In this document: in pieces, positions 12,124 to 62,987 of the stretch
How the letters are laid out: each line of letters opens with the position of its first letter
How positions within the stretch are numbered: the stretch's first letter is position 1
DNA from: Candidatus Magasanikbacteria bacterium GW2011_GWC2_37_14
GTDB lineage: Bacteria; Patescibacteriota; Patescibacteriia; Magasanikbacterales; UBA922
NCBI GenBank assembly: GCA_000990355.1
Contig: LBSX01000001.1
Coordinates: forward strand, 3,392-67,391
DNA: 64,000 bases
Direction of reading: 5' to 3'
Program-made: the position numbers and the translations under genes
The notes under the pieces: generated by a model
What the model was told of the DNA's origin: nothing
Databases searched by the model: none
What the model saw: the letters and a program-made list of their open reading frames with translations, nothing else

Positions 12124-12867
12124 ATGACGAAGGGATACCAGTACCCCTACCGCACGAAATTGTGGGACCCGATGAGCGTGCGCCTGATCGAAGTGCCAAC
12201 CGACGCGGTCGGCTGCGTCATTCGCGGCCGCCACGCCGAGCCGGTGCGCGTGGGCCCGGACCACGCGCGCTCCCTGACGCCCGATGGCATCGCCATGGCC
12301 ATGACGGTTCAGATCCAGTACAGGGCGCTCATCGGCTTCCTGGGGAAGCACTTCGCCGAGCCGGCCTACTGGGCGTCGAACGCGGTGCGCTCAATCGTGA
12401 GCACGGCCCTGGCCACCGGGGCCGAGGTGGTGGAGCAGGACTCCCTGCTCAACTTGACGATCTCTATCGCCAAGGCGCCTGACCCCGAGGGCTGCCACGC
12501 CAACTTCCACGAGCACTGCGTGGCCAAGGGCATCAAGCTGGGCGAGATGTTCCGCTGGGTCACGGAAGATCCGGCGCGCTTCGGCGACCAGCCCGTGGAA
12601 GAGGCGCTCGCCAAGTGCAACGCCTTCAACACCAAGCTGATCGCGACCAGCGGCAACGAGGGACGATTCAAGGTCACTTTCGACCACGAACCGGCCAACT
12701 CGCTGTGGGCGAGGAGGAACGGCGTCTCGTTGGACGATCTAGGCCTGGACGTGCTCCAGGCCTACATCATCTTCCTGGGTGGACCGCACGGACACGTCCT
12801 CAGTGTCCAGAAGTTCTACCCGGACACCACCGCGACCCTGCCGGTCGTCTCCGCCACCTCGCGCTGA
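12124..12867 (+). CDS. hypothetical protein encoded by a ~64% GC island (possible horizontally acquired cargo)
   Basis: 247 aa from the ATG at 12124, with GGGAGAG RBS-like sequence 5 nt upstream; MTKGYQYPYRTKLWDPMSVRLIEVPTD.... An upstream 28-codon ORF (12041-12127) ends in a TGA that overlaps this ATG. The track ORF begins further upstream at a TTG, and an ATG at 11977 is an alternative start. Confidence 0.5.
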   Translation: MTKGYQYPYRTKLWDPMSVRLIEVPTDAVGCVIRGRHAEPVRVGPDHARSLTPDGIAMAMTVQIQYRALIGFLGKHFAEPAYWASNAVRSIVSTALATGAEVVEQDSLLNLTISIAKAPDPEGCHANFHEHCVAKGIKLGEMFRWVTEDPARFGDQPVEEALAKCNAFNTKLIATSGNEGRFKVTFDHEPANSLWARRNGVSLDDLGLDVLQAYIIFLGGPHGHVLSVQKFYPDTTATLPVVSATSR

Positions 12868-13030
12868 TTCCCACCGCCACCTCTCACCTCTCTCGCCCCC
12901 TGCCACGTCGTCGTCAGACTTTACGTGGTCTCACGGGCACAACTCAACATCAAGGTTCGCTCTCAACCCCCGTGGTTCACACCCGGGGGAAGAGACTAAT
13001 TCAATCATTTATAAATGATTGAATTACTTC

Positions 13031-13069
13031 ACACAAAATCCACCAAAAAGGTGGATTTTGTGTTTTTGT
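13031..13069 (+). terminator. Rho-independent terminator (14-bp perfect stem plus T-tract)
   Basis: acacaaaatccacc-aaaaa-ggtggattttgtgt followed by tttt. Confidence 0.7.
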
Positions 13070-13074
13070 CTGAC

Positions 13075-20432: not shown

Positions 20433-20437
20433 AATAA

Positions 20438-20558
20438 TCTCGAGCCACAGCGAGAGATCCCTTTTCTATGAGATTAACTCGCTATATTAAATTAGTTGTT
20501 TAGTTAAATCGAAAGGGATTCCTCACCCCGCATTTGCGGGGTTCGGAATTATGGTGAC
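20438..20558. repeat. ~115-bp palindromic element; an inverted copy is at 58596-58703
   Basis: The reverse complement of 58596-58703 aligns almost base for base (atctcgagccacagcgagagatccc...gggattcctcacc...ttcggaat). Its end supplies the last codons (PNPANAG*) of paralog 5. Confidence 0.8.
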
Positions 20559-43364: not shown

Positions 43365-44324
43365 CTATCTAACGGGGATTGCTTTGAGATCATTTGTTAC
43401 TGGCTTATACAATTCCGGATCAATGGTGCGACTAAAACAAACTCGGCCAGATACGTGAATCCAGTTTTGTGAATAAGCACTATCGTAAGGCTGGGTATAA
43501 AAATTAGGCGCCGCGGCAATACCATAATCTTTATCGGCTGTGGCAAAGTTAGCACAAAGTTCAAAAGCTAAAGCACTAATAATATTGTATTCATAATCAA
43601 CTTTTGTGTTTGGATCAGTAGGAATAAGCAACCCAGAAATACTATCATTTAAATCAACTAGTTTGACTGGTAATTTTTGTTTTTTGGTCCAATAATCTAC
43701 AATTTGATTTTGTAAAATTTGTAAATCATTGATTCTTTTTTCATCAAAACGACGATTACGTTGTGCACCTGGAGTACCCACAATAAAAAAACCAATAATA
43801 ATACTAGCTAAAACAACTACCGAAACAACTACAGTTAAAATTAAAGGAATTTTTGATAGTGATTCTTTGCGTTTTAAATCCCAGAGGTAATAGGCAAAAA
43901 CCGCAACGGCTACCAAGAGTACAACCAAAACTTTTAGGAAAAAACGCAGGCTTAATTCACCATTCAAAAAATTATAAACAAAAATCATTAAGTCAACAAT
44001 AATAGTAATTGCTGAAATAAACAAAGTAAAATACGTAAGCCACTTGCGTAATTTTAAATCTCGTTTTTCGGGAGTAATTTTTAAATCCTTTTCTAAAAAC
44101 CAGGTAGTTAACAAATAAGCAGGCACAGCTACAAAAAGAATTGAACTGGACCAGCGCACGCCATCGGAAATACCGCTAAAATAATAATTTAGGGCATCTG
44201 GGAACTTGGCATTGATGTAATTTACGTAAAGGGTAATAAAACCAATGACACTTAAATAAAACGTAACAATATTAAACAAATGCAAAAACACATCTTTGGG
44301 TGTGCTTTTTAAATGATTTTCCAT
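43365..44324 (-). CDS. hypothetical integral membrane protein
   Basis: 319 aa, 5-6 N-terminal TM helices then a soluble C-domain. Confidence 0.4.
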   Translation of the reverse strand: MENHLKSTPKDVFLHLFNIVTFYLSVIGFITLYVNYINAKFPDALNYYFSGISDGVRWSSSILFVAVPAYLLTTWFLEKDLKITPEKRDLKLRKWLTYFTLFISAITIIVDLMIFVYNFLNGELSLRFFLKVLVVLLVAVAVFAYYLWDLKRKESLSKIPLILTVVVSVVVLASIIIGFFIVGTPGAQRNRRFDEKRINDLQILQNQIVDYWTKKQKLPVKLVDLNDSISGLLIPTDPNTKVDYEYNIISALAFELCANFATADKDYGIAAAPNFYTQPYDSAYSQNWIHVSGRVCFSRTIDPELYKPVTNDLKAIPVR

Positions 44325-44385
44325 ATTCCTTAAGTTTAATAATTAAGATATTTATTATAGCATCTAACTGTGTAGATTACAAAAA

Positions 44386-44560
44386 ACAAAAAACCGCCTT
44401 TTCTCCTTGCTCAAATTATTATTTTTAATAAGCTGAATAGGGTGGCGGTTTTTGTCACCCATTTTTGCTTGGGTGCGCCCGGAAGTGGGCGAAGGTGCGA
44501 GAGGTGGGCGCTGCTAAACAGCGAAAGGCGACGACGAATCCAGGAAGGTGCGGAAGGTAG
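44386..44560. repeat. GC-rich ~170-bp repeat, copy A (inverted relative to copy B at 49095-49268)
   Basis: The reverse complement of 49150-49266 matches 44386-44500 almost exactly (ggtggcggtttttgtcacccatttttgcttgggtgcgcccggaagtgggcg, plus the hairpin aaaaaccgcc...ggcggttttt). Similarity then decays over the next ~70 bp. Confidence 0.75.
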
Positions 44561-44878
44561 CACAATGAACTTCTCGTTCACGTCTGGTGATCCGAGAACG
44601 CTTCAGAAAATCGGCCAGCTCCACAGCAACCTGTGTAAGTGGCACTTCCGCCGCAAAGGCCCGAACGTTGACACGAAGGGGGAAAGCATCGATCAGGACA
44701 CCAGGGGCACTCTTGCCATCTGGTTCGGCGTGCTTGAAGTTCACTCGGTACTTCATCACTCACTCCATGTCCTAGTTGTTGAGCACAAGTCCCACAACAT
44801 AATGCCAGAAAAAAACAAAAAAGTCAAGGATAAAAAAATGACCCTACCATATAATAGGGCCATTTTAAATTATTAAAA

Positions 44879-45331
44879 TTATTTTTTGAGTAAATCAGCC
44901 GGTAAAACCCATTTACTAATTGTCATAGCATTACAGGCCTGAGCTTGGTAACCTGCTTCTTCGGCAGAAATTGGCTGTCCGCCATAATTATATGACCAGG
45001 CAATACTTTCAGAAACAGTACCTGGAGTAGCTTGGCAACCACCCAAGTCTGAGTAAGGACAGCCATCTAGAGAAAATTTTCCTTCTTCGCAAGACAATCT
45101 CATACGATCTTCTGTAAATATTTCACCAATAAAATCAAAACAAGTACTTTTACTTTCAATCATATTACAACTACCACGTACTTTACTTTCGGTTTTGGTT
45201 TCTAATAGTGGCAAAACATCATTTTCATAATTAATTTCTTGGTCTTTTGGCACTTCGCTACAACCTCCACCAACCAACAATACTGCCATGACACTTGTTA
45301 ATAGAATTTTATAATTATTCAAAATTTTCAT
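44879..45331 (-). CDS. Cys-rich putative lipoprotein
   Basis: Signal peptide plus lipobox-like LVGGGC; 8 further Cys. Confidence 0.5.
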   Translation of the reverse strand: MKILNNYKILLTSVMAVLLVGGGCSEVPKDQEINYENDVLPLLETKTESKVRGSCNMIESKSTCFDFIGEIFTEDRMRLSCEEGKFSLDGCPYSDLGGCQATPGTVSESIAWSYNYGGQPISAEEAGYQAQACNAMTISKWVLPADLLKK

Positions 45332-45354
45332 AATATTATAATAATATTTAATTA

Positions 45355-45888
45355 TTACTCCTCAATAATTTCTACTTCGTTTATTATTACCGGTTCTACA
45401 GGTGTAGAAGCTTCACCCATTAAACTATAAGTAACCGGAGAAGTAGCAATTACATCAACTATTTCTAGGCCATTTACGACTTTGCCAAAGATTGTATAAT
45501 TTGGTGGCAAAGGTACATCGGCATGCATAATAAAAAATTGACTGCCATTGGTATGAGCGCCGGCATTGGCCATTGCCAAAACTCCTCGTTCGTAGGTGCC
45601 AGAAAATTTTTCATCTTTAAATTTGTAACCCGGGCCACCAGCACCAGTGCCACTAGGATCACCACCTTGAATCATAAAACCATCAATTACACGGTGAAAA
45701 ATTACTTGATTATAGAAATCAGTACTAGCTAAATATACAAAATTATTTACCGTAACAGGCACAGCTTCGTGATTTAGTTCTGCTAAAATTTCGCCTTTGC
45801 TAGTTTTTATTTTGGCTTTATATTTTTTACCACTACTTAAAACCGAATGTTTTTCTGGATGAAAATCTGCTATTTTTTCTTTTTTCAT
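45355..45888 (-). CDS. ppiB: peptidyl-prolyl cis-trans isomerase, cyclophilin type
   Basis: 177 aa; FHRVIDGFMIQGGDPSGTGAGGPGYKFKDE and HTNGSQFFI motifs. Confidence 0.85.
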   Translation of the reverse strand: MKKEKIADFHPEKHSVLSSGKKYKAKIKTSKGEILAELNHEAVPVTVNNFVYLASTDFYNQVIFHRVIDGFMIQGGDPSGTGAGGPGYKFKDEKFSGTYERGVLAMANAGAHTNGSQFFIMHADVPLPPNYTIFGKVVNGLEIVDVIATSPVTYSLMGEASTPVEPVIINEVEIIEE

Positions 45889-45900
45889 AAAAATTAATTA

Positions 45901-48804
45901 TTAAGCGCCATGACACTTTTTGTATTTTTTTCCACTCCCACAAGGACAAGGATCATTTCTGCCAATTTTTTCTCCGGTTTCTTCGTTCCGAGGTTTACTC
46001 TCTGTTTGTCCACTAGCCAATTCTACCGAATCACTACCTTTTAAAACCATTTTTTCCGAAGCCATAATTGACGGTGCCAACTGAATACCCAAACCAATTT
46101 TGAAAAATGAATATACTACTTCTTTTTGAATTCCACTAAGCAATTCATTAAACATTTGATAGGTTTCTTTTTTGTATTCTACCAGTGGATCACGTTGGCC
46201 ATAACCACGGAGTCCTATACCAGTACGCAAATAATCAATCGCTACCAAGTGATCTACCCAAAAACTATCTATGGAACGAAGCAAAATATTTTTTTCTAAT
46301 TCATGCATCGCACGCTCTCCTTCTTCTGACGTTCCAAAATTAGACATTACCTTTTCTTTAAAAACCTCATATTCTTTTTCGGCCTTATTCATTAAAAACT
46401 TTACAATTTCATCACGCACCACCACGTCTTCTAATTTGGAATTGCCATTTTTGGTTAAGTGTAACAAGGTCTCACGTTCTTCGTTGGTAAAAGAAAAAAT
46501 AGTATGCATGGTTTCGTAAATTTCTTTGAGATCCCATTCATTTTTGTCGGGTAAATTGGTATGAAAAGAAACGACAAAATTTATTTCTTCGGCAATTAAA
46601 TCCATGATTGTTTCTTGTAAACTAAGATATTTCTTATCAAAGTCATGAGAATTTTCGTCTTTAATAACTTCTTCTTGATTTACTTTAAAATTTGCAGCTA
46701 AATTTAAAATCTGACGTCGTTTTTTGTAAATTACATCGCGATGTTTGTTTAAGACATCATCATATTCCAACAAATGTTTACGAGAATCAAAATGAAAACC
46801 TTCAACTTTCTTTTGTGCGCCTTCCAACATGCGAGTAATCATGCGTTGTTCAATTGGCATGTCTTCGGGCACTTTTAATGTGGTCATGACACTCTTAATT
46901 CGGTCGCCAGCAAAAATTCGCATTAAGTCATCTTCGGTAGACACAAAAAATTGGGTTTCACCAGGATCACCTTGACGAGCACTACGACCACGAAGTTGAT
47001 TATCAATACGACGTGCTTCGTGGCGTTCGGTACCAAGCACAAACAAACCACCAGCTTGGCAAACAATCTCTGCCTCTTCTTTATTTATTGGGTTGCCACC
47101 AAGCTTAATGTCTACACCACGACCAGCCATATTAGTGGCCAAGGTAATTGCGCCTGGTCTACCTGCTTGGGCAATAATTTCCGCTTCACGTTCGTGATTT
47201 TTGGCATTTAAAATTTCATGTTTAATGCCTTCTACTGTTAAGTAAGCACTTAATTCTTCATTTTTTTCTACCGAAATAGTACCAATCAACATTGGCTGAT
47301 TTTTGGCTCGACATTCTTTGATTTTTTCAATGATTGCTTTGTTTTTGGCGCGTTCATGACGATAAATACGATCGGGATGATCAACTCGTTGATCACCCTT
47401 GTTGGTAGGAATAGTAATAACATCCAAATTATATATTTTACCAAATTCTTCTTTTTCGGTTTCGGCCGTACCAGTCATACCCGATAACTTGCGGTACATG
47501 CGAAATAAATTTTGGAAAGTAATTGTGGCCAAAGTTTGACTTTCGCGTTGGATTTTAACATTTTCTTTGGCTTCAATAGCTTGATGAAGTCCTTCGGAAT
47601 AACGACGGCCTGGCATTTTGCGTCCCGTAAATTCGTCGATAATAATAATTTCACCGTTATCGACAATATAATCACGATCACGTTTGAATAATACTTCGGC
47701 TTTTAAAGCTTGTTCGATATGATGGACTAATTTTATACCACCTTCTTCGTAAATATTGGCCACATTTAACCATTTTTCAAATTTGGCAATGCCTTGTTCG
47801 GTAAGAGTGGCCGAACGCATTTTTTCGTCCAAATTATAATCTCCCAAATCGTCGGGATTAACTGGAGTATTGTCGTTTTTACTAAGCATGCCAAAACCAG
47901 TGGTATCTTTTACAGTTTTATCTTCTTTTAATTGACGAACTAATTTGGCAAATTGATAATACTGATCTGTGGCTTCTTCGGCTGGGGCAGAAATAATTAG
48001 CGGAGTACGAGCTTCATCAATTAGAATAGAATCTACTTCGTCGACAATTGCATAATGCATTTCATCACCAGGGCGCATTACCATTTCTTCCAAACTCTGT
48101 ACCATGTTGTCGCGCAAATAATCAAAACCAAATTCATTGTTGGTACCATAAGTAATATCACAACGATAAGTTTCTTGGCGTGAACAAGGAACAAGAAATT
48201 CATCTTCAATTTTAAAACTTTCTATTTCACTTTCTTTTTCTAATTCTTCAACTTTGCGGATTTCCTCCCCTTGGAAAGGGGAGGTTGGGAGGGGTTGATT
48301 TTTATTAGCATTATATTTATACGACACGCGCATGTTTTGAATAATACCCACACTCATGCCCAAAAAATCATAAATTTTACTCATCCATACAGCATCGCGT
48401 TTGGCCAAATAATCATTGACAGTTACTACATGCACACCTTTGCCTTCCAAAGCATTTAAATAAACCGGCAAAGTGGCTACCAAAGTTTTACCTTCACCAG
48501 TACGCATTTCGGCAATACTACCTTTGTGCAACATGGTGCCACCAATAAGTTGTACATCGTAGTGACGCATACCTAAAACACGGTGTGCAGTTTCGCGCAC
48601 CGTAGCAAAAGCTTCTGGTAAAATATCATCCAATGTTTCGCCTTTAACCAGACGTTCTTTAAATTCAATAGTTTTGTGTTTTAGTTCATCATCAGTTAAT
48701 TTTTGCCAAGCAGGTTCTAAACTATTAACTTTTTCAACAATCGGCTGAACTGCACGAACAAATTTTTTACTAGGATCGCCAAATATTTTTTCAAGAAATT
48801 GCAT
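45901..48804 (-). CDS. secA: preprotein translocase ATPase SecA (with an in-frame hairpin insert near the N-terminus)
   Basis: 967 aa; DEAD-like motor motifs. C-terminal zinc finger CPCGSGKKYKKCHG. The insert at 48258-48300 (cccctcccaacctcccctttccaaggggagg) encodes ..SPFQGEEIRK.. Confidence 0.9.
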   Translation of the reverse strand: MQFLEKIFGDPSKKFVRAVQPIVEKVNSLEPAWQKLTDDELKHKTIEFKERLVKGETLDDILPEAFATVRETAHRVLGMRHYDVQLIGGTMLHKGSIAEMRTGEGKTLVATLPVYLNALEGKGVHVVTVNDYLAKRDAVWMSKIYDFLGMSVGIIQNMRVSYKYNANKNQPLPTSPFQGEEIRKVEELEKESEIESFKIEDEFLVPCSRQETYRCDITYGTNNEFGFDYLRDNMVQSLEEMVMRPGDEMHYAIVDEVDSILIDEARTPLIISAPAEEATDQYYQFAKLVRQLKEDKTVKDTTGFGMLSKNDNTPVNPDDLGDYNLDEKMRSATLTEQGIAKFEKWLNVANIYEEGGIKLVHHIEQALKAEVLFKRDRDYIVDNGEIIIIDEFTGRKMPGRRYSEGLHQAIEAKENVKIQRESQTLATITFQNLFRMYRKLSGMTGTAETEKEEFGKIYNLDVITIPTNKGDQRVDHPDRIYRHERAKNKAIIEKIKECRAKNQPMLIGTISVEKNEELSAYLTVEGIKHEILNAKNHEREAEIIAQAGRPGAITLATNMAGRGVDIKLGGNPINKEEAEIVCQAGGLFVLGTERHEARRIDNQLRGRSARQGDPGETQFFVSTEDDLMRIFAGDRIKSVMTTLKVPEDMPIEQRMITRMLEGAQKKVEGFHFDSRKHLLEYDDVLNKHRDVIYKKRRQILNLAANFKVNQEEVIKDENSHDFDKKYLSLQETIMDLIAEEINFVVSFHTNLPDKNEWDLKEIYETMHTIFSFTNEERETLLHLTKNGNSKLEDVVVRDEIVKFLMNKAEKEYEVFKEKVMSNFGTSEEGERAMHELEKNILLRSIDSFWVDHLVAIDYLRTGIGLRGYGQRDPLVEYKKETYQMFNELLSGIQKEVVYSFFKIGLGIQLAPSIMASEKMVLKGSDSVELASGQTESKPRNEETGEKIGRNDPCPCGSGKKYKKCHGA

Positions 48805-48817
48805 AAAATAATAATAT

Positions 48818-48845
48818 TCCCCTCCCCCTTGTAGGGGGAGGAAAA
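48818..48845. repeat. GC hairpin ttcccctccccc-ttgta-gggggaggaaa in the secA 5' UTR
   Basis: Perfect 10-bp G/C stem 14 nt upstream of the secA ATG. It sequesters a GGAGG that could serve as the SD. Related hairpins are at 48258-48300, 49264-49300 and 49350-49380. Confidence 0.6.
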
Positions 48846-48939
48846 TTTAAAAGTCCATCAAATTATATCAAAGAGCAGGACTTTTGTCTACCCCTTGACC
48901 CTTCAAATCAGGGTCAAGCCTGAGTACACAGCCGAAGGC

Positions 48940-48968
48940 TTGACAAAAGGGCTAAAATATGCTATAAT
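48940..48968 (+). promoter_or_regulatory. Consensus sigma70 promoter TTGACA-17-TGcTATAAT, near-identical to the one at 11784
   Basis: cTTGACAaaagggctaaaatatgcTATAATtg versus cTTGACAaaagcaagaaaatgtgcTATAATat; 25 of 31 positions identical. It points into GC-rich repeat copy B. Confidence 0.55.
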
Positions 48969-48998
48969 TGTGGCATAAAACTGCCCTAGAGGCATTTG

Positions 48999-49136
48999 AT
49001 GATCTATTGCGCCGTGTTCCTAACCGAAAACAACGAACTAACCCTCAACCCTACTGGAACCAACTGGGAGGCGGTAGGCATCGCCACCATAGGATACGAG
49101 GGCCTCACGCGCTTCATCGCCTTCGGCCAGGGCTAA
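48999..49136 (+). CDS. candidate small ORF (45 aa) in the GC-rich transcript downstream of the 48940 promoter
   Basis: AGAGG 6 nt upstream of the ATG; MIYCAVFLTENNELTLNPTGTNWEAVGIATIGYEGLTRFIAFGQG. Speculative; it could equally be non-coding. Confidence 0.25.
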   Translation: MIYCAVFLTENNELTLNPTGTNWEAVGIATIGYEGLTRFIAFGQG

Positions 49137-49268
49137 TCAGCCCAGCCTCGCTCCTTCCCCCGCCCACTTCCGGGCACACCCAAGCAAAAATGGGTGACAA
49201 AAAACCGCCACCCTGCTCAGTTTATTAAATCTAATAATTTGAACAAGGAGAAGAGGCGGTTTTTTGTT
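49095..49268. repeat. GC-rich ~170-bp repeat, copy B; ends in the hairpin aaaaaaccgcc..(45 nt)..ggcggtttttt
   Basis: See copy A. The terminal inverted repeat plus T-tract looks like a terminator for the 48940-promoted transcript. Confidence 0.75.
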
Positions 49269-49380
49269 TGTTTCCCTCCCCTACAAGGGGAGGGTTAGCC
49301 TGCCTGCCGGTAGGCAGGGGTGGGGTCTGGCAAACAGCGAAACCTCCTCCTCGCCTCCCCCTTATAGGGGGAGGAAAATT
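49264..49380. repeat. Cluster of three GC hairpins (ccctcccctacaaggggaggg; cctgcctgccggtaggcagg; cctcccccttatagggggagg) downstream of hpf
   Basis: Perfect palindromes directly readable. Likely terminator(s) for hpf on the minus strand. Confidence 0.65.
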
Positions 49381-49381
49381 G

Positions 49382-49726
49382 TTATCCCTGATATTCTTTT
49401 TCACCACGCAAAACTTTTTTATCTTTGGCGCGCATTTTTTCTTTCATTTTTTCTAGTTCTACTTTTAAATGATCTTTTACTTTGTCAATCGCTTTGTACA
49501 AATCTGGTTCTTCTTTTACCACACGCAATAATTTTCCAGGTACTGCCAAATTTACTTCGGCATAAAAAATATCGCCTTTTTGATGATGATGCGAAGTCAT
49601 GCCCACATCAATATCCGCACTTTGAATATTGTCAAAAAATTTTTCTAAAGTACTAATTTTTTCTTCGGCATAATTTTTTATAGCTTCAGTTAATTCAATG
49701 TTTGTACCTTTAATATTTATATTCAT
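49382..49726 (-). CDS. hpf: ribosome hibernation promoting factor (RaiA/YfiA family)
   Basis: 114 aa; MNINIKGTNIELTEAIKNYAEEKISTLEKFF...IFYAEVNLAVPG. Confidence 0.8.
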   Translation of the reverse strand: MNINIKGTNIELTEAIKNYAEEKISTLEKFFDNIQSADIDVGMTSHHHQKGDIFYAEVNLAVPGKLLRVVKEEPDLYKAIDKVKDHLKVELEKMKEKMRAKDKKVLRGEKEYQG

Positions 49727-50675: not shown

Positions 50676-50716
50676 AATTGATTTTTTTCTGGATTTTTAA
50701 TATAATTACCCTCGTT

Positions 50717-52663
50717 ATGTTGAACTTAACAGACAACCCAACTATCTACGTAACCCGCGATATTGAACGCGCACTCGGAATTCCGGTTAACACCAAGGGT
50801 TATTTTATTATCTCAAATTATTCCGACTTTGCCAAGAGTTATAAAAAAAATAGAAATATACTTTTGATTAAAGCAAAGCCCCGTACCGACCGAGGGTCTG
50901 GTACTGGGGAAAAAGAACAATTAGATACATGGGAGTTGTTGCAAAATAAAAAAGTAAAAAAGTTTATTGGCACACTGTCATCCCGAGCACACCCCGCAAA
51001 TGCGGGGGAAGCCGAGGGATCCCTTAAACAAAGTAAAAGGGATTCCTCCACGGGAGCCTGCCCCGAGCGGACTAGCCGAGGGGGTCGGAATGACACACAC
51101 GCCAAAATCCTAGTTTTTAAAAACACTCTACAAATAGAAAAAACCTGTGCCGAAAACGGTTGGGAATTATTAAATCCACCAGCAAAAATTTCCAATGCAG
51201 TAGAAGAAAAAATTTCGCAAATTACTTGGCTTGGACCATTAAAAAAATATTTACCCAAATACCAAGTTTTAAAATGCAAAGATATTGATCTAGAAAAAGA
51301 ATCGCAGAGGAATTATTTTTCCGAAGTGAGGACCAAGCAGAGCGAACCCGCAACGAGGGAAAATAATTCCTCGAAATTCTTTAAACCATTTATCTTACAA
51401 TTTAATCGTTCACATACTGGTAACGGAACATTTTTAATTACTAATGAACAACAATTAGTGGAATTGCAACAAAAATTTCCTGAACGAGAAGTACGAATTG
51501 CCGAATATATTCCCGGTCCGCTTTTTACCAACAATAATGTGGTAACCAAAAATGCTATTTTGCTTGGCAACCTAAATTATCAAATCACTGGTCTTAAACC
51601 TTTTACAGATTTATCTCTTTCTACCATTGGTAATGATTGGGCTCTGCCACACAAAATTTTGAACAAAAAACAAATTGCCGAGTACAATAAAATTGCCAAT
51701 GAGGTTGGTTTACGCTTGCAAAAAGCAGGATGGTGCGGACTTTTTGGGATTGATGTAGTACAAAACGAACATACTAAAAAATTATACTTACTAGAAATTA
51801 ATTGTCGACAGCCCGCAAGTACGACTTATGAATCACAGTTGCAACTCTCTGTCATCCCGAGCGAAGTAAAACGAAGTCGAGGGATCCCTTACACAACAAC
51901 CAAGGGATTCCTCCACTCGTCGCGAGACTCGGTCGGAATGACAGATGAGGTTACTACTTTTGAAGCACATTTACTTTCGTTAACAAATTTTGATTTAAAA
52001 AACAAAAAATTAATAAAAATAAATAATGGTGCACAAATAATTCAACGCGTTACGCAACACACGCCGGTAATTAATATTCCGAAAATTACCAAAAAACAAT
52101 TCTTTAATTACTTTGTTTACAACAACAGCAAAGACAATGCCGACTTGCTTCGTTTACAAACCACTGTTGGCATAATGAAAGAACACAACATATTAAATGA
52201 TTATGGAAGAATTCTGCAATACTTTGTAATTGGCGCGAAAGATGGCAAACCCTGGTGTGCTGACCGAGCGGCGGGAATAATTATTAAGGACAATAAAATC
52301 TTAGTAATAAAAAGGAATAAATATGGTGAAGAATTTTATATTTTTCCCGGAGGAACTGTGGAAAAAGGAGAAAAACTAAAAGAAACAGCAATTAGAGAAA
52401 TAAAAGAAGAAACCAATTTAACCTGTACTCTACAAAAAACAAAGCCACTATTTTACGAAGATAAAATTGATGGCAAAAAAATCTATCACTATTTTATCGA
52501 TAAATGTACTGGAACTGCTAAAATCAAAAGCAATTCCGAAGAATTTATCCGTAACAAAGAAGGCAATACTTATGAATTGGTCTGGATTGATTTGTTAGAA
52601 TTAAAAAATATTGAATTACACCCAATTGAAATTAAAAAAGAATTATTAAAAAAATATGTCTAG
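50717..52663 (+). CDS. ATP-grasp-domain protein fused to a C-terminal NUDIX hydrolase domain; carries two in-frame palindromic-element insertions
   Basis: Central ATP-grasp motifs (..EVRIAEYIPG.., GWCGLFGIDVVQNEHTKKLYLLEINCRQ). C-terminal Nudix box GGTVEKGEKLKETAIREIKEETNL. The start is chosen at the internal Met (MLNLTDNP); the track start at 50678 abuts murB. Confidence 0.6.
   Translation: MLNLTDNPTIYVTRDIERALGIPVNTKGYFIISNYSDFAKSYKKNRNILLIKAKPRTDRGSGTGEKEQLDTWELLQNKKVKKFIGTLSSRAHPANAGEAEGSLKQSKRDSSTGACPERTSRGGRNDTHAKILVFKNTLQIEKTCAENGWELLNPPAKISNAVEEKISQITWLGPLKKYLPKYQVLKCKDIDLEKESQRNYFSEVRTKQSEPATRENNSSKFFKPFILQFNRSHTGNGTFLITNEQQLVELQQKFPEREVRIAEYIPGPLFTNNNVVTKNAILLGNLNYQITGLKPFTDLSLSTIGNDWALPHKILNKKQIAEYNKIANEVGLRLQKAGWCGLFGIDVVQNEHTKKLYLLEINCRQPASTTYESQLQLSVIPSEVKRSRGIPYTTTKGFLHSSRDSVGMTDEVTTFEAHLLSLTNFDLKNKKLIKINNGAQIIQRVTQHTPVINIPKITKKQFFNYFVYNNSKDNADLLRLQTTVGIMKEHNILNDYGRILQYFVIGAKDGKPWCADRAAGIIIKDNKILVIKRNKYGEEFYIFPGGTVEKGEKLKETAIREIKEETNLTCTLQKTKPLFYEDKIDGKKIYHYFIDKCTGTAKIKSNSEEFIRNKEGNTYELVWIDLLELKNIELHPIEIKKELLKKYV
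50987..51094. repeat. Bipartite palindromic element (GTCATCCCGAGC..GAGGGATCCC / GGGATTCCTCC..GGTCGGAATGAC) in-frame in the ATP-grasp/NUDIX gene
   Basis: Encodes ..SSRAHPANAGEAEGSLKQSKRDSSTGACPERTSRGGRNDTH.. . The core ccccgcaaatgcgggg recurs at 20527-20541. Confidence 0.8.
51851..51942. repeat. Bipartite palindromic element, second in-frame copy in the same gene
   Basis: GTCATCCCGAGCGAAG..CGAGGGATCCC / GGGATTCCTCCACTCGTCGCGAGACTCGGTCGGAATGAC, encoding ..SVIPSEVKRSRGIPYTTTKGFLHSSRDSVGMTDE.. Confidence 0.8.
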
Positions 52664-53402: not shown

Positions 53403-53433
53403 AAAACCCTGTACCGTTCTGGTACAGGGTTTT
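53403..53433 (+). terminator. Rho-independent terminator
   Basis: aaaaccctgtacc-gttct-ggtacagggtttt: perfect 13-bp stem plus T-run. Confidence 0.7.
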
Positions 53434-53563
53434 AATATTTTCAAGACCCAATCTTAATTAACAAATAATTACTAATTAAGATTGCTGGGGCCTTGAACGA
53501 CCACCAGCCAGAGGCGGGTTGGTCGAGGGATAAGAAAGAACGGAGGGAAGGAACAGACGCTAT

Positions 53564-54157
53564 CTAGCCGCTGGTGGGCCAGAGGCGCTTGTTGGTGGCG
53601 ATGGCCATGTCGTAATTGGCGGTGATCTGGAAGACCTTGTGGGCCATGAGCTTCTGGAAATGCAATCTCATGGTGGCATGACCACCCACTTCCAAGAACA
53701 GGGTGTAGTCGGTCGGGTCGCAGAGGACAGTGACCGACTTGTGGTTCTTGGCCCCAGCGCGCAACATGGCGGGGCCACCGATGTCGATGTTCTCGACCAG
53801 TTCGTCGCGCGTGACGTCGGGGTTGGCCGCCACCAGCTCGAAAGGGTAGAGGTTCACGACAACCAGATCGATACCCTGGATGCCGTGCTTCTCCAGGAAG
53901 TTCAGGTGTACCCGGTTGTCGCGCTTGTAGAGGATGCCCGCATGGATCTGCGGGCAGAGGGTTTTTACCCTACCATCCAGACCCTCGGGGAAGCCCGTGA
54001 CCTCGGCCACGTCGGTGACCGCGATGTCCTGCTCACGCAGGAACTTGGCGGTACCGCCCGTACTGAGGATCTCCCAGCCGAAGTCCACCAAGGCCTTGGC
54101 CAGTTCCACTACACCGGTCTTGTCGAACACACTGATCAACGCTCGGGGCATGGGCAC
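53564..54157 (-). CDS. Stand-alone PurH N-terminal (MGS-like / IMP cyclohydrolase) domain protein, encoded on a ~62% GC island
   Basis: 197 aa; ALISVFDKTGVVELAKALVDFGWEILSTGGTAKFL...GRVKTLCPQIHAGIL...VVNLYPF...DIGGPAMLRAGAKNHKSVTV. This aligns motif by motif with the IMPCH domain of PurH, but the ~390-aa AICAR transformylase domain is absent. There is a perfect AGGAGGTG SD 5 nt upstream. Confidence 0.7.
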   Translation of the reverse strand: MPMPRALISVFDKTGVVELAKALVDFGWEILSTGGTAKFLREQDIAVTDVAEVTGFPEGLDGRVKTLCPQIHAGILYKRDNRVHLNFLEKHGIQGIDLVVVNLYPFELVAANPDVTRDELVENIDIGGPAMLRAGAKNHKSVTVLCDPTDYTLFLEVGGHATMRLHFQKLMAHKVFQITANYDMAIATNKRLWPTSG

Positions 54158-54288
54158 CTCCTGATTACTGGCTAAACCGGAAAGACGTTAATTTCAATTT
54201 AACACAAATAATGCAAATTAGCAAGAGTGTGATGTTTCGATACAAAAACTTGATTTTTTATTGATTTTTTGCTAAGCTATACGGGCTT

Positions 54289-55529: not shown

Positions 55530-56321
55530 ATGTATCTAAACTGGAACGCACTTACAATTGATGTATTTTCAGATAATAAAATCAACTCTCTTTACAACGA
55601 GGGTTATCTTTTTACCCGCACAGGCAAAGGTGATATGTACCAGACGCGAAGTATTCGCATTGATTTAAGTAAGTTTGAATTGAGTAGTGAAAATAAACGA
55701 GTGTTGAAAAAGACTGAGGACATAGGATTTAAAGTATATGATATTCCATACGAAAAATATGATTGGTCAATTGGCAAAATGGCCAAGGATTTTTATGAAA
55801 CAAGGTTTGGTAGAGGAACGCCTGCACTGAACCGAGCCAAAGGCTCTGGTTTAGTGTTTTCGGCAAATAAAATAAAAGAATTATTAACAACTAAACATAA
55901 TTTTAATAAGTTATTTGTTTACAGTCTGTCATTGCGAGAAGCCCCCGAGGGCGACGAAGCAATCCCCAGTAAGAATGGGATTGCCACGCCCTCCACTTCG
56001 TTACGGGCTCGCAATGACAGTGTCGGCTACGTAATCTGTCACGAAACAAACGAACTACTTCACTACTCTTACCCATTTTATAACTTAGATCTTAAATCCT
56101 ATGTCTTAAGTCCTAACACGGGCATGGGTATGATGCTCCAAGCAATTATCTACGCTCAAAAACAAGGCAAAAAATATGTTTATCTAGGTTCTGCCAAAGA
56201 CGCCAAAGCGAAATACAAATTACAATTTGCAGGACTAGAATGGTTTGATGGAAAAACTTGGCAAACAGATTTGGAAGAATTGAAACAGCAAATTATGCAA
56301 AATAAGCAACAAGCAGATTAA
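55530..56321 (+). CDS. aminoacyl-tRNA-dependent transferase-like protein (ATE/Bpt C-terminal motif; FemXAB-like peptidoglycan branch transferase also possible)
   Basis: C-terminal YVYLGSAKDAKAKYKLQFAGLEWFDG resembles the ATE_C/Bpt YLGY..KM.YK..F.P.E motif. It lies between mraY and murC. Contains an in-frame palindromic element. Confidence 0.35.
   Translation: MYLNWNALTIDVFSDNKINSLYNEGYLFTRTGKGDMYQTRSIRIDLSKFELSSENKRVLKKTEDIGFKVYDIPYEKYDWSIGKMAKDFYETRFGRGTPALNRAKGSGLVFSANKIKELLTTKHNFNKLFVYSLSLREAPEGDEAIPSKNGIATPSTSLRARNDSVGYVICHETNELLHYSYPFYNLDLKSYVLSPNTGMGMMLQAIIYAQKQGKKYVYLGSAKDAKAKYKLQFAGLEWFDGKTWQTDLEELKQQIMQNKQQAD
55928..56018. repeat. Bipartite palindromic element (GTCATTGCGAG..GCAATCCCC / GGGATTGCC..CTCGCAATGAC), in-frame
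   Basis: Encodes ..SLREAPEGDEAIPSKNGIATPSTSLRARNDS.. Confidence 0.8.
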
Positions 56322-56328
56322 GTATTTT

Positions 56329-56706
56329 ATGACAGTAATAAAAACTTTTAAAGAATTACTAGTCTGGCAAAAATCACATCAGCTAACTTTAATAATTTAT
56401 AAAATAACCAATGATTATCCAAAATACGAAATATTTGCTTTAACAAGTCAAACAAGACGAGCTTCCTCCTCAATACCTGCAAACATAGTTGAAGGTTTTA
56501 GAAGACAAAGTCTAAAAGATAGCATAAACTTTTACAATACTGCTGATGCTTCTCTAGAAGAATTAAAATATCATTTACTACTAGCAAAAGACTTAAATTA
56601 TATTAGTATTGAACGATATAACTACGTTCTTGAAAAAGCAGAAGAAGTTGGCAAATTACTTACTGGATGGTTACAAAGTCAAAGAAAATTTTTAAATACT
56701 AAATAA
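56329..56706 (+). CDS. four-helix-bundle protein (23S rRNA intervening-sequence protein family)
   Basis: 125 aa; ELLVWQKSHQLTLIIYKIT..FPKYEIFALTSQTRRASSSIPANIVEGFRRQS matches the family signature. Confidence 0.7.
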   Translation: MTVIKTFKELLVWQKSHQLTLIIYKITNDYPKYEIFALTSQTRRASSSIPANIVEGFRRQSLKDSINFYNTADASLEELKYHLLLAKDLNYISIERYNYVLEKAEEVGKLLTGWLQSQRKFLNTK

Positions 56707-57108: not shown

Positions 57109-58617
57109 ATGAGAATCCATTTCATCGGTATCTGTGGTGTGGCTATGTCGGCCTTGGCAATAGCTTTTAAAAAAGCTGGACACGAAAAACTGCCTGATGG
57201 CAGTCTCGTGCCATGCTTTGAGGTATCGGGGAGTGATGTGGGATTTTTTCCACCGGTTTCTACAAATTTGGAAAAACATAATATAAAATTTTATCCTGGC
57301 TGGCATCCAGAAAAAATGGGAACGCCTGATTTAGTGGTAGTTGGCAATGTCGCTAGTTCCACCAATCCCGAATGGCAATACGTGCAAGAAAAAAAATTAA
57401 ATTACAAATCTTACCCAGAAGCAATTGAAGAATTTTTTATTAAAGAAAATTCCATTGTTTGTGCTGGTACTTATGGTAAAACCACTACTTCGGCGTTGTT
57501 GGCTTTTGTTTTAAGTGAATGCGGATACAACCCAAGTTATATGTTTGGCGGGATTGCTGTGGATGAGGGGTTTGACAGTGCCAGCTTAGGAAATGAGCCA
57601 CGTAAAGTTCAGACTTCGTCTGAACCACGTGGCGGTTACTCCGTAACCGAAGGGGATGAGTACAAGAGCGCACGCTGGGACAATGGAGCAAAATTTTTTC
57701 ATTATCACCCCACTCACCTACTCTTAACTGCCATACAGTGGGATCATGCTGATGTTTATCCAACAGAAGAAAGTTATTTTGAGGCATTTGAAAAATTAGT
57801 TAAGTCTGTTCCAGAAAATGGATTGCTTGTAATGAGTGAACAGATATCAGATAGCAAATATCAGATAGCAAATAGCATACGATATGGTCAATCCGAAAAA
57901 AATGATTACGTATATTTTGACATCCACCAAACAAAAGACGGAATTAAATTTCAAATTAAACATAATGCTATTTGTTATTTGTTATCTGCCAATATGTTCG
58001 GTTCTTACAACGCCGAAAACATAACTGGAGTATTCGCATTGGCAAATGAGATCGGTTTAGAACCAGAAAAAATTATTTCTGCAATAAATAAATTTAAAGG
58101 CTTAAAAAGAAGATTGGAAAAACGTTATGAAAATAAAATAACAATTTTTGATGATATTGCTCATTCACCTGCCAAAGCAAATAGTGTTTTACAAACTTTA
58201 GCCAAAATATATAAGCGTCATCCCCGCGAAGGCGGGGATCTTACGGAGATTCAAGATTCCCGCCTTCGCGGGAATGACGAACCAAAACTATTTTGTGTTT
58301 TTGAACCAAACACTGGAAACCGTCAAGCACAATCTGCGCCAAGCTATAGCAATGCTTTCAAAGATGCCGATGAAGTTATTATTCCCAAACTTACTAAATT
58401 AAAAACTTCCGAAGAATTAAAACATTGGGAAGGAAAAGAATTAGCCGAGATTATCTCCCAAATCCATAACAACGTAAAATATCTTGAAAATGATAATGAA
58501 TTAATAAATTATTTAATTAATAATACAAGCGAAGGCGATGTGATTGTTTTTTGTGGCAGTCACGGCTTTCGTGGCATGATTGATGAATTAATTTTGTCAT
58601 TCCGAACCCACAGGTGA
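57109..58617 (+). CDS. murC: Mur ligase family protein (UDP-N-acetylmuramate--L-alanine ligase MurC / Mpl-like) with in-frame palindromic inserts
   Basis: IHFIGICGVAMSALA..GSD Rossmann start and P-loop CAGTYGKTTTSALLAFVL. In-frame inserts at 57590-57640 (palindrome gccacgtaaagttcagac/gtctgaaccacgtggc) and 58217-58278. The C-terminus (..ILSFRTHR*) is supplied by the element at 58596. Confidence 0.75.
   Translation: MRIHFIGICGVAMSALAIAFKKAGHEKLPDGSLVPCFEVSGSDVGFFPPVSTNLEKHNIKFYPGWHPEKMGTPDLVVVGNVASSTNPEWQYVQEKKLNYKSYPEAIEEFFIKENSIVCAGTYGKTTTSALLAFVLSECGYNPSYMFGGIAVDEGFDSASLGNEPRKVQTSSEPRGGYSVTEGDEYKSARWDNGAKFFHYHPTHLLLTAIQWDHADVYPTEESYFEAFEKLVKSVPENGLLVMSEQISDSKYQIANSIRYGQSEKNDYVYFDIHQTKDGIKFQIKHNAICYLLSANMFGSYNAENITGVFALANEIGLEPEKIISAINKFKGLKRRLEKRYENKITIFDDIAHSPAKANSVLQTLAKIYKRHPREGGDLTEIQDSRLRGNDEPKLFCVFEPNTGNRQAQSAPSYSNAFKDADEVIIPKLTKLKTSEELKHWEGKELAEIISQIHNNVKYLENDNELINYLINNTSEGDVIVFCGSHGFRGMIDELILSFRTHR
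58217..58278. repeat. Bipartite palindromic element (CATCCCCGCGAAGGCGGGGATC / GATTCCCGCCTTCGCGGGAATGAC) in-frame in murC-like
   Basis: Encodes ..HPREGGDLTEIQDSRLRGNDE..; sibling of 11919-11981. Confidence 0.8.
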
Positions 58618-58703
58618 GGAATCCCTTTCAATTTAACTAAACAACTAATTTAATATAGCGAGTTTATTCCACAGAAAAGGGATCTCTCGCTGTGGCTCGA
58701 GAT
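58596..58703. repeat. ~110-bp palindromic element, inverted copy of 20438-20558
   Basis: Reverse-complement alignment to 20438-20558 is near-perfect. Its first 24 nt provide the stop and last codons of murC-like. Confidence 0.8.
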
Positions 58704-58707
58704 TTTT

Positions 58708-59259
58708 ATGAAAATACCTAAACAAGCAAAAAAAGTTTTTGATGGTGTTGTTTTTGATGTTTATCAATGGCCTCAAGAATTATTTGATAAATCAATCGCC
58801 ACTTATGAAATGCTTAAGCGAAAAAACACAGTGGAAATTATTCCTATAATGGATGATAAAATTTGTCTTATTTATGAAGAACAACCAACTTTACCAGTTG
58901 CTTATAGTGTAGTTGGTGGACAGCAAGATTTTGATGAAACACCATTAGATTGTGCTAAACGAGAATTATTAGAAGAAACTGGTTTAGCTTCTAATGATTG
59001 GGAATTAATTAAGGAATTTGACCCTTACAATAAAATTGAATGGACAATTTCACGCTTTATTGCTCGAAATTGCCAAAAAGTTGCTGAACAAAATTTGGAT
59101 CCAGGCGAAAAAATAGAGTTAAGACCAGTTGCTTTTGATGAATTTATGAAAATCATGGTTAGTGATAGATTTCGTTCCCAAGATGTAACTGCTGATATTT
59201 TGAAAATGATTCATTTTGGAAAATTTGAAGAATTTAAAAATAAATTATTTAAAAAGTAG
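58708..59259 (+). CDS. NUDIX hydrolase (ADP-ribose pyrophosphatase-like)
   Basis: Nudix box GGQQDFDETPLDCAKRELLEETGL. Confidence 0.7.
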   Translation: MKIPKQAKKVFDGVVFDVYQWPQELFDKSIATYEMLKRKNTVEIIPIMDDKICLIYEEQPTLPVAYSVVGGQQDFDETPLDCAKRELLEETGLASNDWELIKEFDPYNKIEWTISRFIARNCQKVAEQNLDPGEKIELRPVAFDEFMKIMVSDRFRSQDVTADILKMIHFGKFEEFKNKLFKK

Positions 59260-61214: not shown

Positions 61215-62987
61215 ATGGAAGGACTAGAAGAAATTTTACTAAAAATTATCCTGCAAAACCCCGCAAATGGCGAGGTGTTTTATAATTTACTCCGTAAAGA
61301 AACCAATAAATTAAAAACTTCTATTCCTCCCAAACGCGAGTTGATTATAGCTTATCAAAAATTAATAAAAAATAAAAGGGCTGTACCCAACAAGCATTTT
61401 GAATTTTTGCTACGCAAAGCGCAAATTCGCACTCTTTCGGGGGTAGCAGTTATTACTTCCCTAGTTAAACCCTATAATTGCCCGGGAAACTGCGTATATT
61501 GCCCTAGCGAGGCCAGAATGCCCAAAAGTTATCTTGCAAGCGAACCAGCCGCTGCCCGCGCTCTAGGGCTTAAATTTAACCCCTATGAGCAAATGCGCCA
61601 GAGGATCTTGATGCTGGAACAAAATGGCCATCCAACCGACAAAATTGAGTATATTATCAAAGGTGGTTCTTGGAATGCCTATCCATTAAAATATCAGTAT
61701 TGGTTTATTTTGGAATCGTTTAGAGCGTGTAACGAATTGTCATCGCGAACCCTACGAAGTAAAGGGTGTGGCGATCCCAAGGATTCACAAAAAAAGACTG
61801 GGATTGCTTCATCTCGCTCGAGCGAGACTCGCAATGACAGCTTGGAACAATTACGCCAGCAATTAAAAATCGAACAACGAAAAAACGAAACTTCCAAACA
61901 CCGAATTATTGGCTTAACTTTGGAAACACGACCTGACTGTGTAACACCAACCACCATTGTCCACATGCGAGAACAAGGTTGCACCAGAATTGAGCTTGGA
62001 CTACAAGCACCAGATGATAAAATTTTAAAATTAGTTGATCGCGGACACACAGTACAACAATTTAAAGATGCAATGCTGCTGCTCCGTCAAGCTGGTTTTA
62101 AAGTTGATCTACATTTTATGCCCGACTTACCCGGCACCACTGCCAAGCATGATGTAGAAATGTATAAATTATTATTTTCTGACCCGGGCCTTAAACCAGA
62201 CATGGTAAAAATTTATCCCTGTACAGTAATTAAATCTGCTCCACTTTATAAATGGTACAAAGCTGGTAAATACAAACCCTATTCTGAGCATAAACTTTTT
62301 GAAGCTTTAATTGCCATGAAATTAGCTACTCCACGCTATTGTCGTATTTCACGACTAATTCGTGATATTCCAGAAAATGAAATAAGTGGTGGAAATATTA
62401 TTACCAATTTGCGACAACATTTGGCAACAGAAATGAAAAATCGAGGATTAAAATGCCAGTGTCTTCGTTGTCGAGAAATAGGACATCAACAAGACTTAAG
62501 ACTTAAGACTGAAGACTTAAGACTATTTACAGACAAATATGAAACCACTGGTGGTACAGAATATTTCCTTTCTTATGAAGATAAAAATAGACAAGTGGTG
62601 TTTGCTTTTTTACGTCTTAGACTTCCCACTGTCATTGCGAGCCCTGCCCGAGCAGGGCGTGGCAATCCCAATGTTTTAAATACTTCCATGGGGATTGCTT
62701 CGTCGCCCTCGGGGGCTTCTCGCAATGACACCGCCTTTATCCGCGAACTCCATACTTATGGACAACTAATGACATTAAAACATGAACACATCAAAGCATT
62801 AAAACAAAAAAATGATGTACAACATACAGGTTTTGGGAAAAAGTTAGTATTAGAAGCCGAAAAAATTGCCAAGAAAAATCATTATCAAAAACTCTCAATT
62901 ATTTCTGGAGTTGGAGTACGGGGATATTACCGCAAACTTGGTTATAAATTAGAAAAAACTTATATGACTAAAAAAATCTCCACATAG
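61215..62987 (+). CDS. elp3: Elp3-family radical-SAM/GNAT tRNA uridine(34) acetyltransferase homolog, with two in-frame palindromic inserts and a short tandem repeat
   Basis: Radical-SAM cysteine cluster ..YNCPGNCVYCP... The central ELP3 block ETRPD..GCTRIELG.Q is present. C-terminal GNAT (..QHTGFGKKLVLEAEKIAKK..). Start taken at MEGLEEIL. Confidence 0.7.
   Translation: MEGLEEILLKIILQNPANGEVFYNLLRKETNKLKTSIPPKRELIIAYQKLIKNKRAVPNKHFEFLLRKAQIRTLSGVAVITSLVKPYNCPGNCVYCPSEARMPKSYLASEPAAARALGLKFNPYEQMRQRILMLEQNGHPTDKIEYIIKGGSWNAYPLKYQYWFILESFRACNELSSRTLRSKGCGDPKDSQKKTGIASSRSSETRNDSLEQLRQQLKIEQRKNETSKHRIIGLTLETRPDCVTPTTIVHMREQGCTRIELGLQAPDDKILKLVDRGHTVQQFKDAMLLLRQAGFKVDLHFMPDLPGTTAKHDVEMYKLLFSDPGLKPDMVKIYPCTVIKSAPLYKWYKAGKYKPYSEHKLFEALIAMKLATPRYCRISRLIRDIPENEISGGNIITNLRQHLATEMKNRGLKCQCLRCREIGHQQDLRLKTEDLRLFTDKYETTGGTEYFLSYEDKNRQVVFAFLRLRLPTVIASPARAGRGNPNVLNTSMGIASSPSGASRNDTAFIRELHTYGQLMTLKHEHIKALKQKNDVQHTGFGKKLVLEAEKIAKKNHYQKLSIISGVGVRGYYRKLGYKLEKTYMTKKIST
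61800..61838. repeat. Half-copy of palindromic element (GGGATTGCTTCATCTCGCTCGAGCGAGACTCGCAATGAC), in-frame in elp3
   Basis: Encodes ..TGIASSRSSETRNDS.. Confidence 0.75.
62631..62739. repeat. Bipartite palindromic element (GTCATTGCGAGCCCTGCCCGAGCAGGGCGTGGCAATCCC / GGGATTGCTTCGTCGCCCTCGGGGGCTTCTCGCAATGAC), in-frame in elp3
   Basis: Encodes ..TVIASPARAGRGNPNVLNTSMGIASSPSGASRNDTAF.. . The tandem repeat gacttaagacttaagactgaagacttaagact at 62494-62526 is also in-frame (DLRLKTEDLRL). Confidence 0.8.

Follow-up and report, generated by a model that had tools for sequence, protein, structure and literature searches.

Candidate GC-rich small-protein genes with a shared 3′ module on either side of secA in a Candidatus Magasanikbacteria genome

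Minimal mobile elements of Neisseria carry alternative genes at a syntenic site, where homologous recombination between the conserved flanking sequences swaps one gene for another (PMC1797815, PMC3787668). Phage morons are independent promoter–gene–terminator units with atypical GC content (PMC3594210). Here we analyse a 64-kb stretch of DNA (the window) from Candidatus Magasanikbacteria GW2011_GWC2 (US42_C0001), a bacterium of the candidate phyla radiation (CPR) from Rifle groundwater, whose proteins are identical to those of the window. An inverted repeat on the two sides of the genes p150, ppiB and secA was traced to the common 3′ end of two small GC-rich units, cassette A and cassette B. 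With a probability of roughly 0.6, we read these units as fast-turnover genes for orphan small proteins, set in conserved expression frames and furnished with a shared, probably bidirectional terminator; the reading is drawn from sequence comparison.

The units resemble the Neisseria elements in that a slot holds different or divergent genes, with flanks at genome-average divergence and no dedicated recombinase; here, however, the flanks are the unit's own promoter/leader and 3′ module and not the neighbouring genes, and the comparison covers two genomes. They resemble morons in being small autonomous units of atypical composition placed between unrelated genes, yet there is no prophage (the neighbours are secA, HPF, p150 and DUF5671), the position is conserved and the regulatory parts are host-like and common to the units. 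With integron cassettes bearing attC they share a short open reading frame (ORF) followed by an imperfect palindrome and a variable ORF content, but each unit has its own promoter, and no integrase nearby, no array and, by inspection, no recognisable core site were seen. The 3′ module, like bidirectional intrinsic terminators, repetitive extragenic palindromic sequences and bacterial interspersed mosaic elements (REP/BIME) and Correia-type sequences, has a GC-clamped hairpin with A- and T-tracts at gene 3′ ends. It is also like these sequences in its probable use from both strands, its repetition in the genome and its appearance as an inverted repeat when genes are oppositely oriented. It differs from them in having two copies in ~77 kb and none in the other genomes scanned, in its two extra upstream hairpins and near-invariant 40-nt AT-rich palindrome, and in standing only behind GC-rich small ORFs. 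The marks of miniature inverted-repeat transposable elements (MITEs), insertion sequence (IS) ends or composite transposons were not seen, as there was no target-site duplication, no transposase and no set of many dispersed copies. The repeat itself is ordinary: a common, terminator-containing 3′ end.

Two opposed units with a common 3′ end

Both repeat-bearing regions are islands of 53–58% GC in a window of 35% GC, and their GC-richness had been recognized in an earlier, sequence-only reading of the window. That reading had described reverse-complement repeats of ~170 bp, near-identical over ~115 bp. By global alignment, 44381–44505 (reverse complement) and 49148–49272 are identical at 108 of 124 positions, with a score of 88 compared to −23.5 ± 6.1 for shuffles, and the repeat search delimited the arms 44381–44453/49200–49272 (73 nt, 89%) and 44449–44491/49161–49203 (43 nt, 98%). 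A 38-nt core occurs at two sites only in the window (0 expected; 0 in 100 shuffles). The repeat is thus real, but its length is ~115–125 bp and not ~170 bp, since the outer ~55 nt (44506–44560 versus 49095–49147) are not significantly similar, 169 of 1000 shuffles scoring as high.

The repeated sequence forms a 3′ module, with copy A at 44381–44505 on the minus strand and copy B at 49148–49272 on the plus strand. Each copy has a C-rich lead (CGCACCTTC in copy A) followed by three hairpins, and copy A ends in a second T-run (44381–44386, minus strand). Hairpin 1, GCCC-ACTTCC-GGGC, lies at 44476–44491 in copy A and at 49162–49175 in copy B; hairpin 2, CACCCA-AGCAAAAA-TGGGTG, lies at 44456–44475 and 49177–49196. 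The third, a long imperfect hairpin, AAAAAACCGCC...GGCGGTTTTTT, has the form A6-CCGCC...GGCGG-T6 and occupies 44388–44453 (with its A/T tracts) in copy A and 49199–49265 (A6...T6) in copy B. It had been noticed in both copies before, and is now seen to fold together with the two short hairpins upstream: the three-hairpin fold was predicted for all four module copies (the two of the window and two in a sister genome), with a z-score of −3.87 relative to shuffles, the long hairpin being part of a predicted fold of −38 to −47 kcal/mol.

In sequence, CCGCC...GGCGG followed by T6, as in an intrinsic terminator, is present in 4/4 copies; the terminator scan, with its loop limit of 3–8 nt, misses the long hairpin. 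Most likely, the module acts as a shared intrinsic terminator and insulator. The symmetry of the A-tract and the T-tract suggests that it is probably usable from both sides, and copy B faces the convergent murB–HPF operon. Module A would separate cassette A from the DUF5671 unit, because a promoter-like site of the DUF5671 gene (44354–44382, minus strand; TTGTAA-17-TATAAT with TG, 10/12) directly follows it.

Ahead of the modules stand the two candidate genes. Cassette A would be a monocistronic unit running from 44827 to 44381 on the minus strand. Its promoter at 44799–44827 (minus strand), TTGACT-17-CATTAT with TG before the −10 box, scored 9/12 in the promoter scan; directly upstream of it is the terminator hairpin of p150 (44835–44866, minus strand). 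The end of the leader, the Shine–Dalgarno (SD) sequence and the ORF take up 44514–44769 (minus strand), with GGAG at 44763–44766, ATG at 44756 and the stop codon at 44514–44516. The ORF has 55% GC and would encode 80 aa (81 from a GTG). Cassette B would be a monocistronic unit running from 48940 to 49272 on the plus strand. Its promoter at 48940–48968 (plus strand), TTGACAAAAGGGCTAAAATATGCTATAAT, is TTGACA-17-TATAAT, agreeing with the consensus at 12/12 positions, and has an extended −10 TG. The SD and ORF extend over 48989–49136 (plus strand), with GAGG at 48989–48992, ATG at 48999 and the stop codon at 49134–49136, giving 45 codons. Both promoters, one called consensus and the other TTGACT-17-CATTAT-like, and both ORFs (44514–44759, minus strand; 48996/48999–49136, plus strand) had been proposed from the letters alone, and each stands. 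A coding status for the 45-codon ORF, whose GC content at third codon positions (GC3) is 0.74, is plausible and less certain than for cassette A.

Orthologous units and ORF turnover

The closest relative of p150 (87% protein identity) is borne by JGI contig Ga0172379_10006723, which represents a sister genome (L015) with ~85% nucleotide identity to the window and 82–87% identity between genes. L015 carries a unit at each orthologous site, orientations unchanged: at locus B, between HPF and secA (6026→5480, minus strand), and at locus A, downstream of p150 (10840→11305). The units have the same locus-specific promoters as their window counterparts, and module identity is 85–91%. At locus A the promoter (L015 10824–10890 versus window 44847–44781) is 82% and the module 88% identical, so that promoter and module have diverged about as much as the genome on average (82–87%). 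A promoter equivalent to the DUF5671 promoter-like site follows the module in L015 too. In L015 the ORF of locus A has 87 aa and that of locus B 114 aa; both have a GGAG-type SD and an ATG of their own, and the stop codon falls 3–14 nt ahead of the module's first conserved motif, CGCACCTTY. Because a genome with ~15% divergence carries both units at the orthologous positions, they are older than the split of the two genomes.

All four units, two in the window and two in L015, thus have the same organization: a promoter, an SD 6 nt from an ATG, an ORF filling the variable part, and then, 3–14 nt past the stop codon, the module. The composition of the ORFs sets them apart from the host genes, with GC3 values of 0.56, 0.74, 0.74 and 0.90 against 0.21–0.27 in host genes and an overall GC of 55–61%. 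GC2, at second codon positions, is lowest in the sense frame of the unit ORFs, and in three of the four the order GC3 > GC1 > GC2 is typical of GC-rich genes.

Evidence for coding also comes from locus A, where the products of the two genomes align over their full length with 29% amino-acid identity and 23 invariant positions. The Smith–Waterman score was 65 (shuffles 23.5 ± 4.3; 0/2000 as high). When 18 frame combinations on both strands were compared, the SD-preceded frame reached z 9.9, and the other 17 at most 2.8. We conclude from this single significant frame that cassette A encodes a real minus-strand protein and that a 144-aa ORF at 44442–44876 (plus strand), called by the gene callers (ENA, JGI) antisense to cassette A, is an artefact; the annotation is corrected accordingly, the callers having chosen the wrong strand. 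The calls in the sister contig are likewise inconsistent, with 86 aa on the minus strand (JGI) and 42 aa on the plus strand (ENA). Nucleotide identity of the locus-A ORFs at codon positions 1, 2 and 3 is 49%, 50% and 36%, the last being the random level. Conservation of positions 1 and 2 above position 3 points to protein-level constraint on the locus-A alleles. Neighbouring genes of the window and L015 show 80–94% protein identity and keep 63–75% identity at third positions, and on this ground the locus-A alleles are far older than the genome split.

At locus B the ORFs (45 versus 114 aa) are unrelated. Nor are the two window ORFs demonstrably paralogous, only their 3′ ends being common. The sequence-only reading had offered paralogous small-protein or noncoding RNA (ncRNA) genes sharing a 3′ module; of this proposal, small-protein genes with a common module are supported, and paralogy and the RNA alternative are not.

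In that RNA alternative, the units would be structured ncRNAs or small RNAs (sRNAs) with a common 3′ domain and their ORFs would be incidental. It accords with the contrast between the GC-rich islands and their AT-rich genome, with the strength of the predicted promoter and terminator, with a module that folds far better than shuffles and with the lack of protein homologues in our searches. The variable regions, however, fold about like dinucleotide shuffles (z +0.7 to −2.4), and the orthologous ones are not alignable as RNA. In 4/4 units the variable part is filled by an ORF with SD and ATG, and the similarity at locus A is at the protein level, in one frame only, with positions 1 and 2 above position 3. 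It had been allowed that Rfam might assign the predicted transcripts to a known family: Rfam gave 0 matches at gathering thresholds in the whole window, and at E-values up to 10 the region 44200–49600 gave noise only (best 23.9 bits against a threshold of 76). Since the variable regions fold like shuffles and Rfam gives no match, we regard the RNA alternative as improbable. A processed sRNA from the 3′ untranslated region, made of the module alone, is possible.

The unit proteins had no match in Pfam, PHROGs, PADLOC, NCBIfam or PDB, none among viral contigs (tblastn-confirmed scans) and none in BLAST searches of phage records. No word-sharing homologues were found for the 81-aa ORF or the 114-aa ORF of L015. 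With the 80-aa protein as query, exhaustive HMMER searching yielded a single match, a 1669-aa repeat protein to which residues 1–31 aligned six times; this match is repeat-inflated, probably fortuitous, and was set aside. When the 80-aa protein was modelled by AlphaFold from its single sequence, the predicted local distance difference test (pLDDT) score was 55.8, too poor for a fold search. Literature searches for links to CPR bacteria, GC-richness or integrons found nothing relevant.

Further copies of the module were not found in ~77 kb of the host genome (the window and a further ~13 kb). Covariance-model and nhmmer searches of 215 kb of related DNA returned only the four copies, two in the window and two in L015. 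In the more distant relatives P0003, P0004, P0006, P0008, P0012, P0013 and P0020, synteny was broken and no module was present. The best non-self match of the covariance model, at 22.8 bits, was the terminator at 12991–13073 of another GC-rich unit of the window. This terminator matches the outer stem (CCACCA-AAAA-GGTGG versus CCGCCA...GGCGG) and is without the 40-nt inner palindrome; by this weak link, the module may be an ordinary terminator to which an inner palindrome has been added. Exact-pattern scans also gave four matches in representative genome contigs and four in viral contigs, all rejected as chance hits without flanking similarity.

The enclosed segment and other GC-rich sequences

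The genes between the repeats (44879–48804, minus strand) are a p150 lipoprotein-like gene at 44879–45331, ppiB at 45355–45888 and secA at 45901–48804. These are housekeeping genes and not element cargo; the genes around the repeats are murB, HPF, secA, ppiB, DUF5671 and secDF. The repeats had been proposed to mark the two ends of some degenerate element, or to be a substrate for inversion of the secA–ppiB segment. Inverted repeats of ~125 bp that lie 4.6 kb apart would suit either proposal, as would the breaks of short-read contigs near both copies, at 44548 (~45 bp within the cassette A ORF, beside copy A) and at 49297 (~25 bp past copy B). Against them, the enclosed genes are housekeeping genes, no target-site duplication was seen, and no tyrosine or serine recombinase, transposase or invertase occurs among the Pfam-called genes of window positions 34879–59726. 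The longest exact run common to the repeats is ~22 bp.

Orientation was compared in assembled contigs, namely the three contigs of the window genome that span the segment (L009, L012 and L013) and the sister genome, and at this contig level a single orientation was found, with no inverted variant. The spanning contigs come from at least two different Rifle groundwater runs or samples; a further contig, L010, derives from the same JGI sample as L009. In L015 the repeats enclose two extra genes (NUDIX and DUF1059), and an ABC-transporter gene lies outside them. That the arrangement is kept in L015 despite the two extra enclosed genes speaks against mobile-element ends, and we consider both proposals hardly credible. 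The whole reason for the inverted repeat is that two units with a common tail point in opposite directions around p150–ppiB–secA.

The independent ENA, JGI and Logan assemblies match the window at 100% across the region with gene order unchanged (L013 at 99.989%, with 2 mismatches); this agreement excludes a chimera. L013 (JGI Ga0209212_1001123, one sample) departs from the window from ~57874 onward, inside a Mur ligase gene, and runs into an IS whose transposase belongs to the rve family; this is a population variant that has acquired an IS.

Several small palindromes surround cassette B. A promoter-like site for secA (48862–48890, minus strand; TAGACA-17-TATAAT with TG, 11/12) is divergent from the cassette B promoter and ~50 bp from it. 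Between the two divergent promoters, at 48893–48919, lies the palindrome CTTGACCCT-TCAAATC-AGGGTCAAG; L015 lacks it, and there the two promoters abut. Beyond module B come small GC palindromes, and the convergent HPF gene then ends at 49382. The window has four palindromes of the form CCTCCCC-N-GGGGAGG, all of them clustered around cassette B (48261–48292, 48816–48847, 49271–49290 and 49351–49380); one of them is within the secA coding sequence, and another, with a terminator-like look, is between the secA promoter and start codon. L015 has only two, those between HPF and the module.

The 29-nt promoter of cassette B occurs exactly twice in the window, and also at the orthologous L015 locus. 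The second site, TTGACAAAAGCAAGAAAATGTGCTATAAT at 11784–11812 (plus strand), stands ahead of the GC-rich island at 12 kb. The unit at 11784–13073 has 60% GC and is stand-alone, with a ~300-nt leader containing small palindromes and a 247-aa orphan ORF (12124–12867; GC3 0.90) without match in Pfam, PHROG, PADLOC or PDB. At its end stand a perfect AT-rich palindrome and the terminator (12991–13073) that weakly matches the outer stem of the module. Another island, 53406–54244 (58% GC), holds a stand-alone N-terminal domain of PurH (MGS/IMP cyclohydrolase) of 195–197 aa, equipped with a promoter-like site, the SD AGGAGG and a terminator of its own. L015 lacks the island and has in its place a simple bidirectional terminator hairpin, of which the window keeps the left arm. 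Given these two islands, GC-rich ORFs in host-type regulatory frames recur in this genome; only cassettes A and B share the module.

These islands bear on two further explanations. One is that the units came in recently as foreign DNA, moron-like and from a high-GC donor, the shared tail arriving alongside. With 55–61% GC and a GC3 of up to 0.90, the ORFs depart widely from the host values, and the island at 53406–54244 is absent from L015 and seated in a former terminator hairpin. Yet both cassettes predate the split, lying at orthologous sites in a ~15% diverged genome. Their promoters and tails resemble the host in being rich in AT and have diverged to the same degree as the genome; searches turned up no homologue in a donor, phage or plasmid, and the region is not a prophage. 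Recent acquisition is unlikely, although we find it the least unlikely of the alternatives considered here.

The other explanation would make the module a site of integron-like or site-specific recombination, an analogue of attC, with ORF–module cassettes inserted behind resident promoters. The ORF is indeed followed by an imperfect palindrome of ~70 nt, ORF content differs between orthologous sites, two other GC-rich islands of the window have an AT-rich ~30-nt palindrome just ahead of their terminators, and the island at 53 kb is an insertion relative to L015. On the other hand, no tyrosine or serine recombinase was found among the Pfam-called genes of the interval searched above, and the base of the hairpin is AAAAAAC...GTTTTTT, with no RYYYAAC/GTTRRRY core apparent to the eye. 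Each unit stands singly, apart from the other and with a promoter of its own, and there is no array behind one promoter. The divergence boundary at locus A is the start codon and does not fall within the palindrome. Only four copies of the module are known. We regard such a site as unlikely, and as more doubtful than recent acquisition or structured RNAs.

Other repeats of the window stand apart from the cassettes. Two GC-rich insertions of ~120–145 bp, at 50969–51113 and 51832–51952, lie in frame within a 661-aa NUDIX-family ORF (50678–52663), and both are absent from L015. Their common ends TGTCATCCCGAGC ... GTCGGAATGACA and the inner GGGATCCCTTA...AAGGGATTCCTCCAC core make them MITE-like and palindromic; they are like Rickettsia palindromic elements in being tolerated in coding sequence. 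BLAST also revealed dispersed repeats at 20409–20527 and ~58613–58733 (121 bp, 91%) and at 55927–55968 and 62689–62730 (42 bp, 100%), and a ~66-bp palindromic element, ATTCCC-N8-GGGAAT, at 11917–11983 and 58215–58286.

Origin and meaning of the units

In the reading we prefer, the promoter/leader and the tail would form a conserved expression frame around a GC-rich ORF that is subject to turnover: in L015, locus A holds a homologue at saturated divergence and locus B an unrelated ORF. Most likely, the ORF would be replaced via homologous recombination through the conserved flanks, the alleles being drawn from an old and diverse pool. Natural transformation in the Magasanikbacteria lineage is assumed in this parallel to Neisseria. 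Variation among the four module copies is partly locus-specific and partly genome-specific, a pattern that fits orthology with some intragenomic conversion. A localised mutator of the diversity-generating retroelement (DGR) type is unlikely, there being no template copy of the variable regions in the 64-kb window and no reverse transcriptase (RT) among the annotated neighbours. A 125-aa protein at 56329–56706, 7 kb away, has Pfam matches to 23S_rRNA_IVP and to bAvd, a DGR accessory protein, with no RT annotated beside it.

Several observations weigh against this preferred reading. The scans brought up no pool of donor alleles: an exact-pattern scan of the other 185,579 representative genomes did not find the module; in pattern scans it was also absent from the JGI metagenome set, except for the sister contig, and from viral contigs. 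A plain terminator accounts neither for the near-invariant 40-nt AT-rich inner palindrome nor for the lasting GC-richness of the ORFs in a genome of 35% GC. In the sense frame of cassette A, GC1 (0.65) exceeds GC3 (0.56), which is atypical for a GC-rich gene, and the 45-codon ORF of cassette B, having no homologue, could be a remnant. In the four near-identical module copies, known from two genomes only, 96.8% of the cells were paired, but shuffled sequences performed equally, so that no covariation signal stood out above shuffles. An apparent compensatory pair seen by eye was outside the consensus register and was dropped, and long-range pairing between the SD and the 3′ lead appeared only in the cassette A fold, being absent from the other three folds.

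It is conceivable, if doubtful to about the same degree as the RNA alternative, that the units are dedicated expression slots: a host-type promoter/leader and the three-hairpin module would enclose GC-rich ORFs swapped or captured with ORF-level precision and without a linked recombinase, with the inner palindrome or the module as the recognition or homology anchor. If this were true, high GC3 would be a functional property, by mRNA-level selection or through a foreign reservoir, and CPR bacteria would have in these units a cassette system of a new kind.

On the preferred reading of small-protein genes in conserved frames, the conspicuous inverted repeat around the essential gene secA would be a by-product of two opposed small genes with a common terminator. 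The pattern suggested for CPR bacteria is one of hyper-divergent, GC-rich orphan small-protein genes in conserved AT-rich frames, with alleles older than the genomes that carry them. We speculate that such turnover of 80- and 45-aa orphans fits antagonistic or interaction functions. If the pattern is general, such loci could mark antagonistic or host-interaction proteins in these symbionts, and they would make it tractable to study how a contrast in composition is sustained within a single genome.

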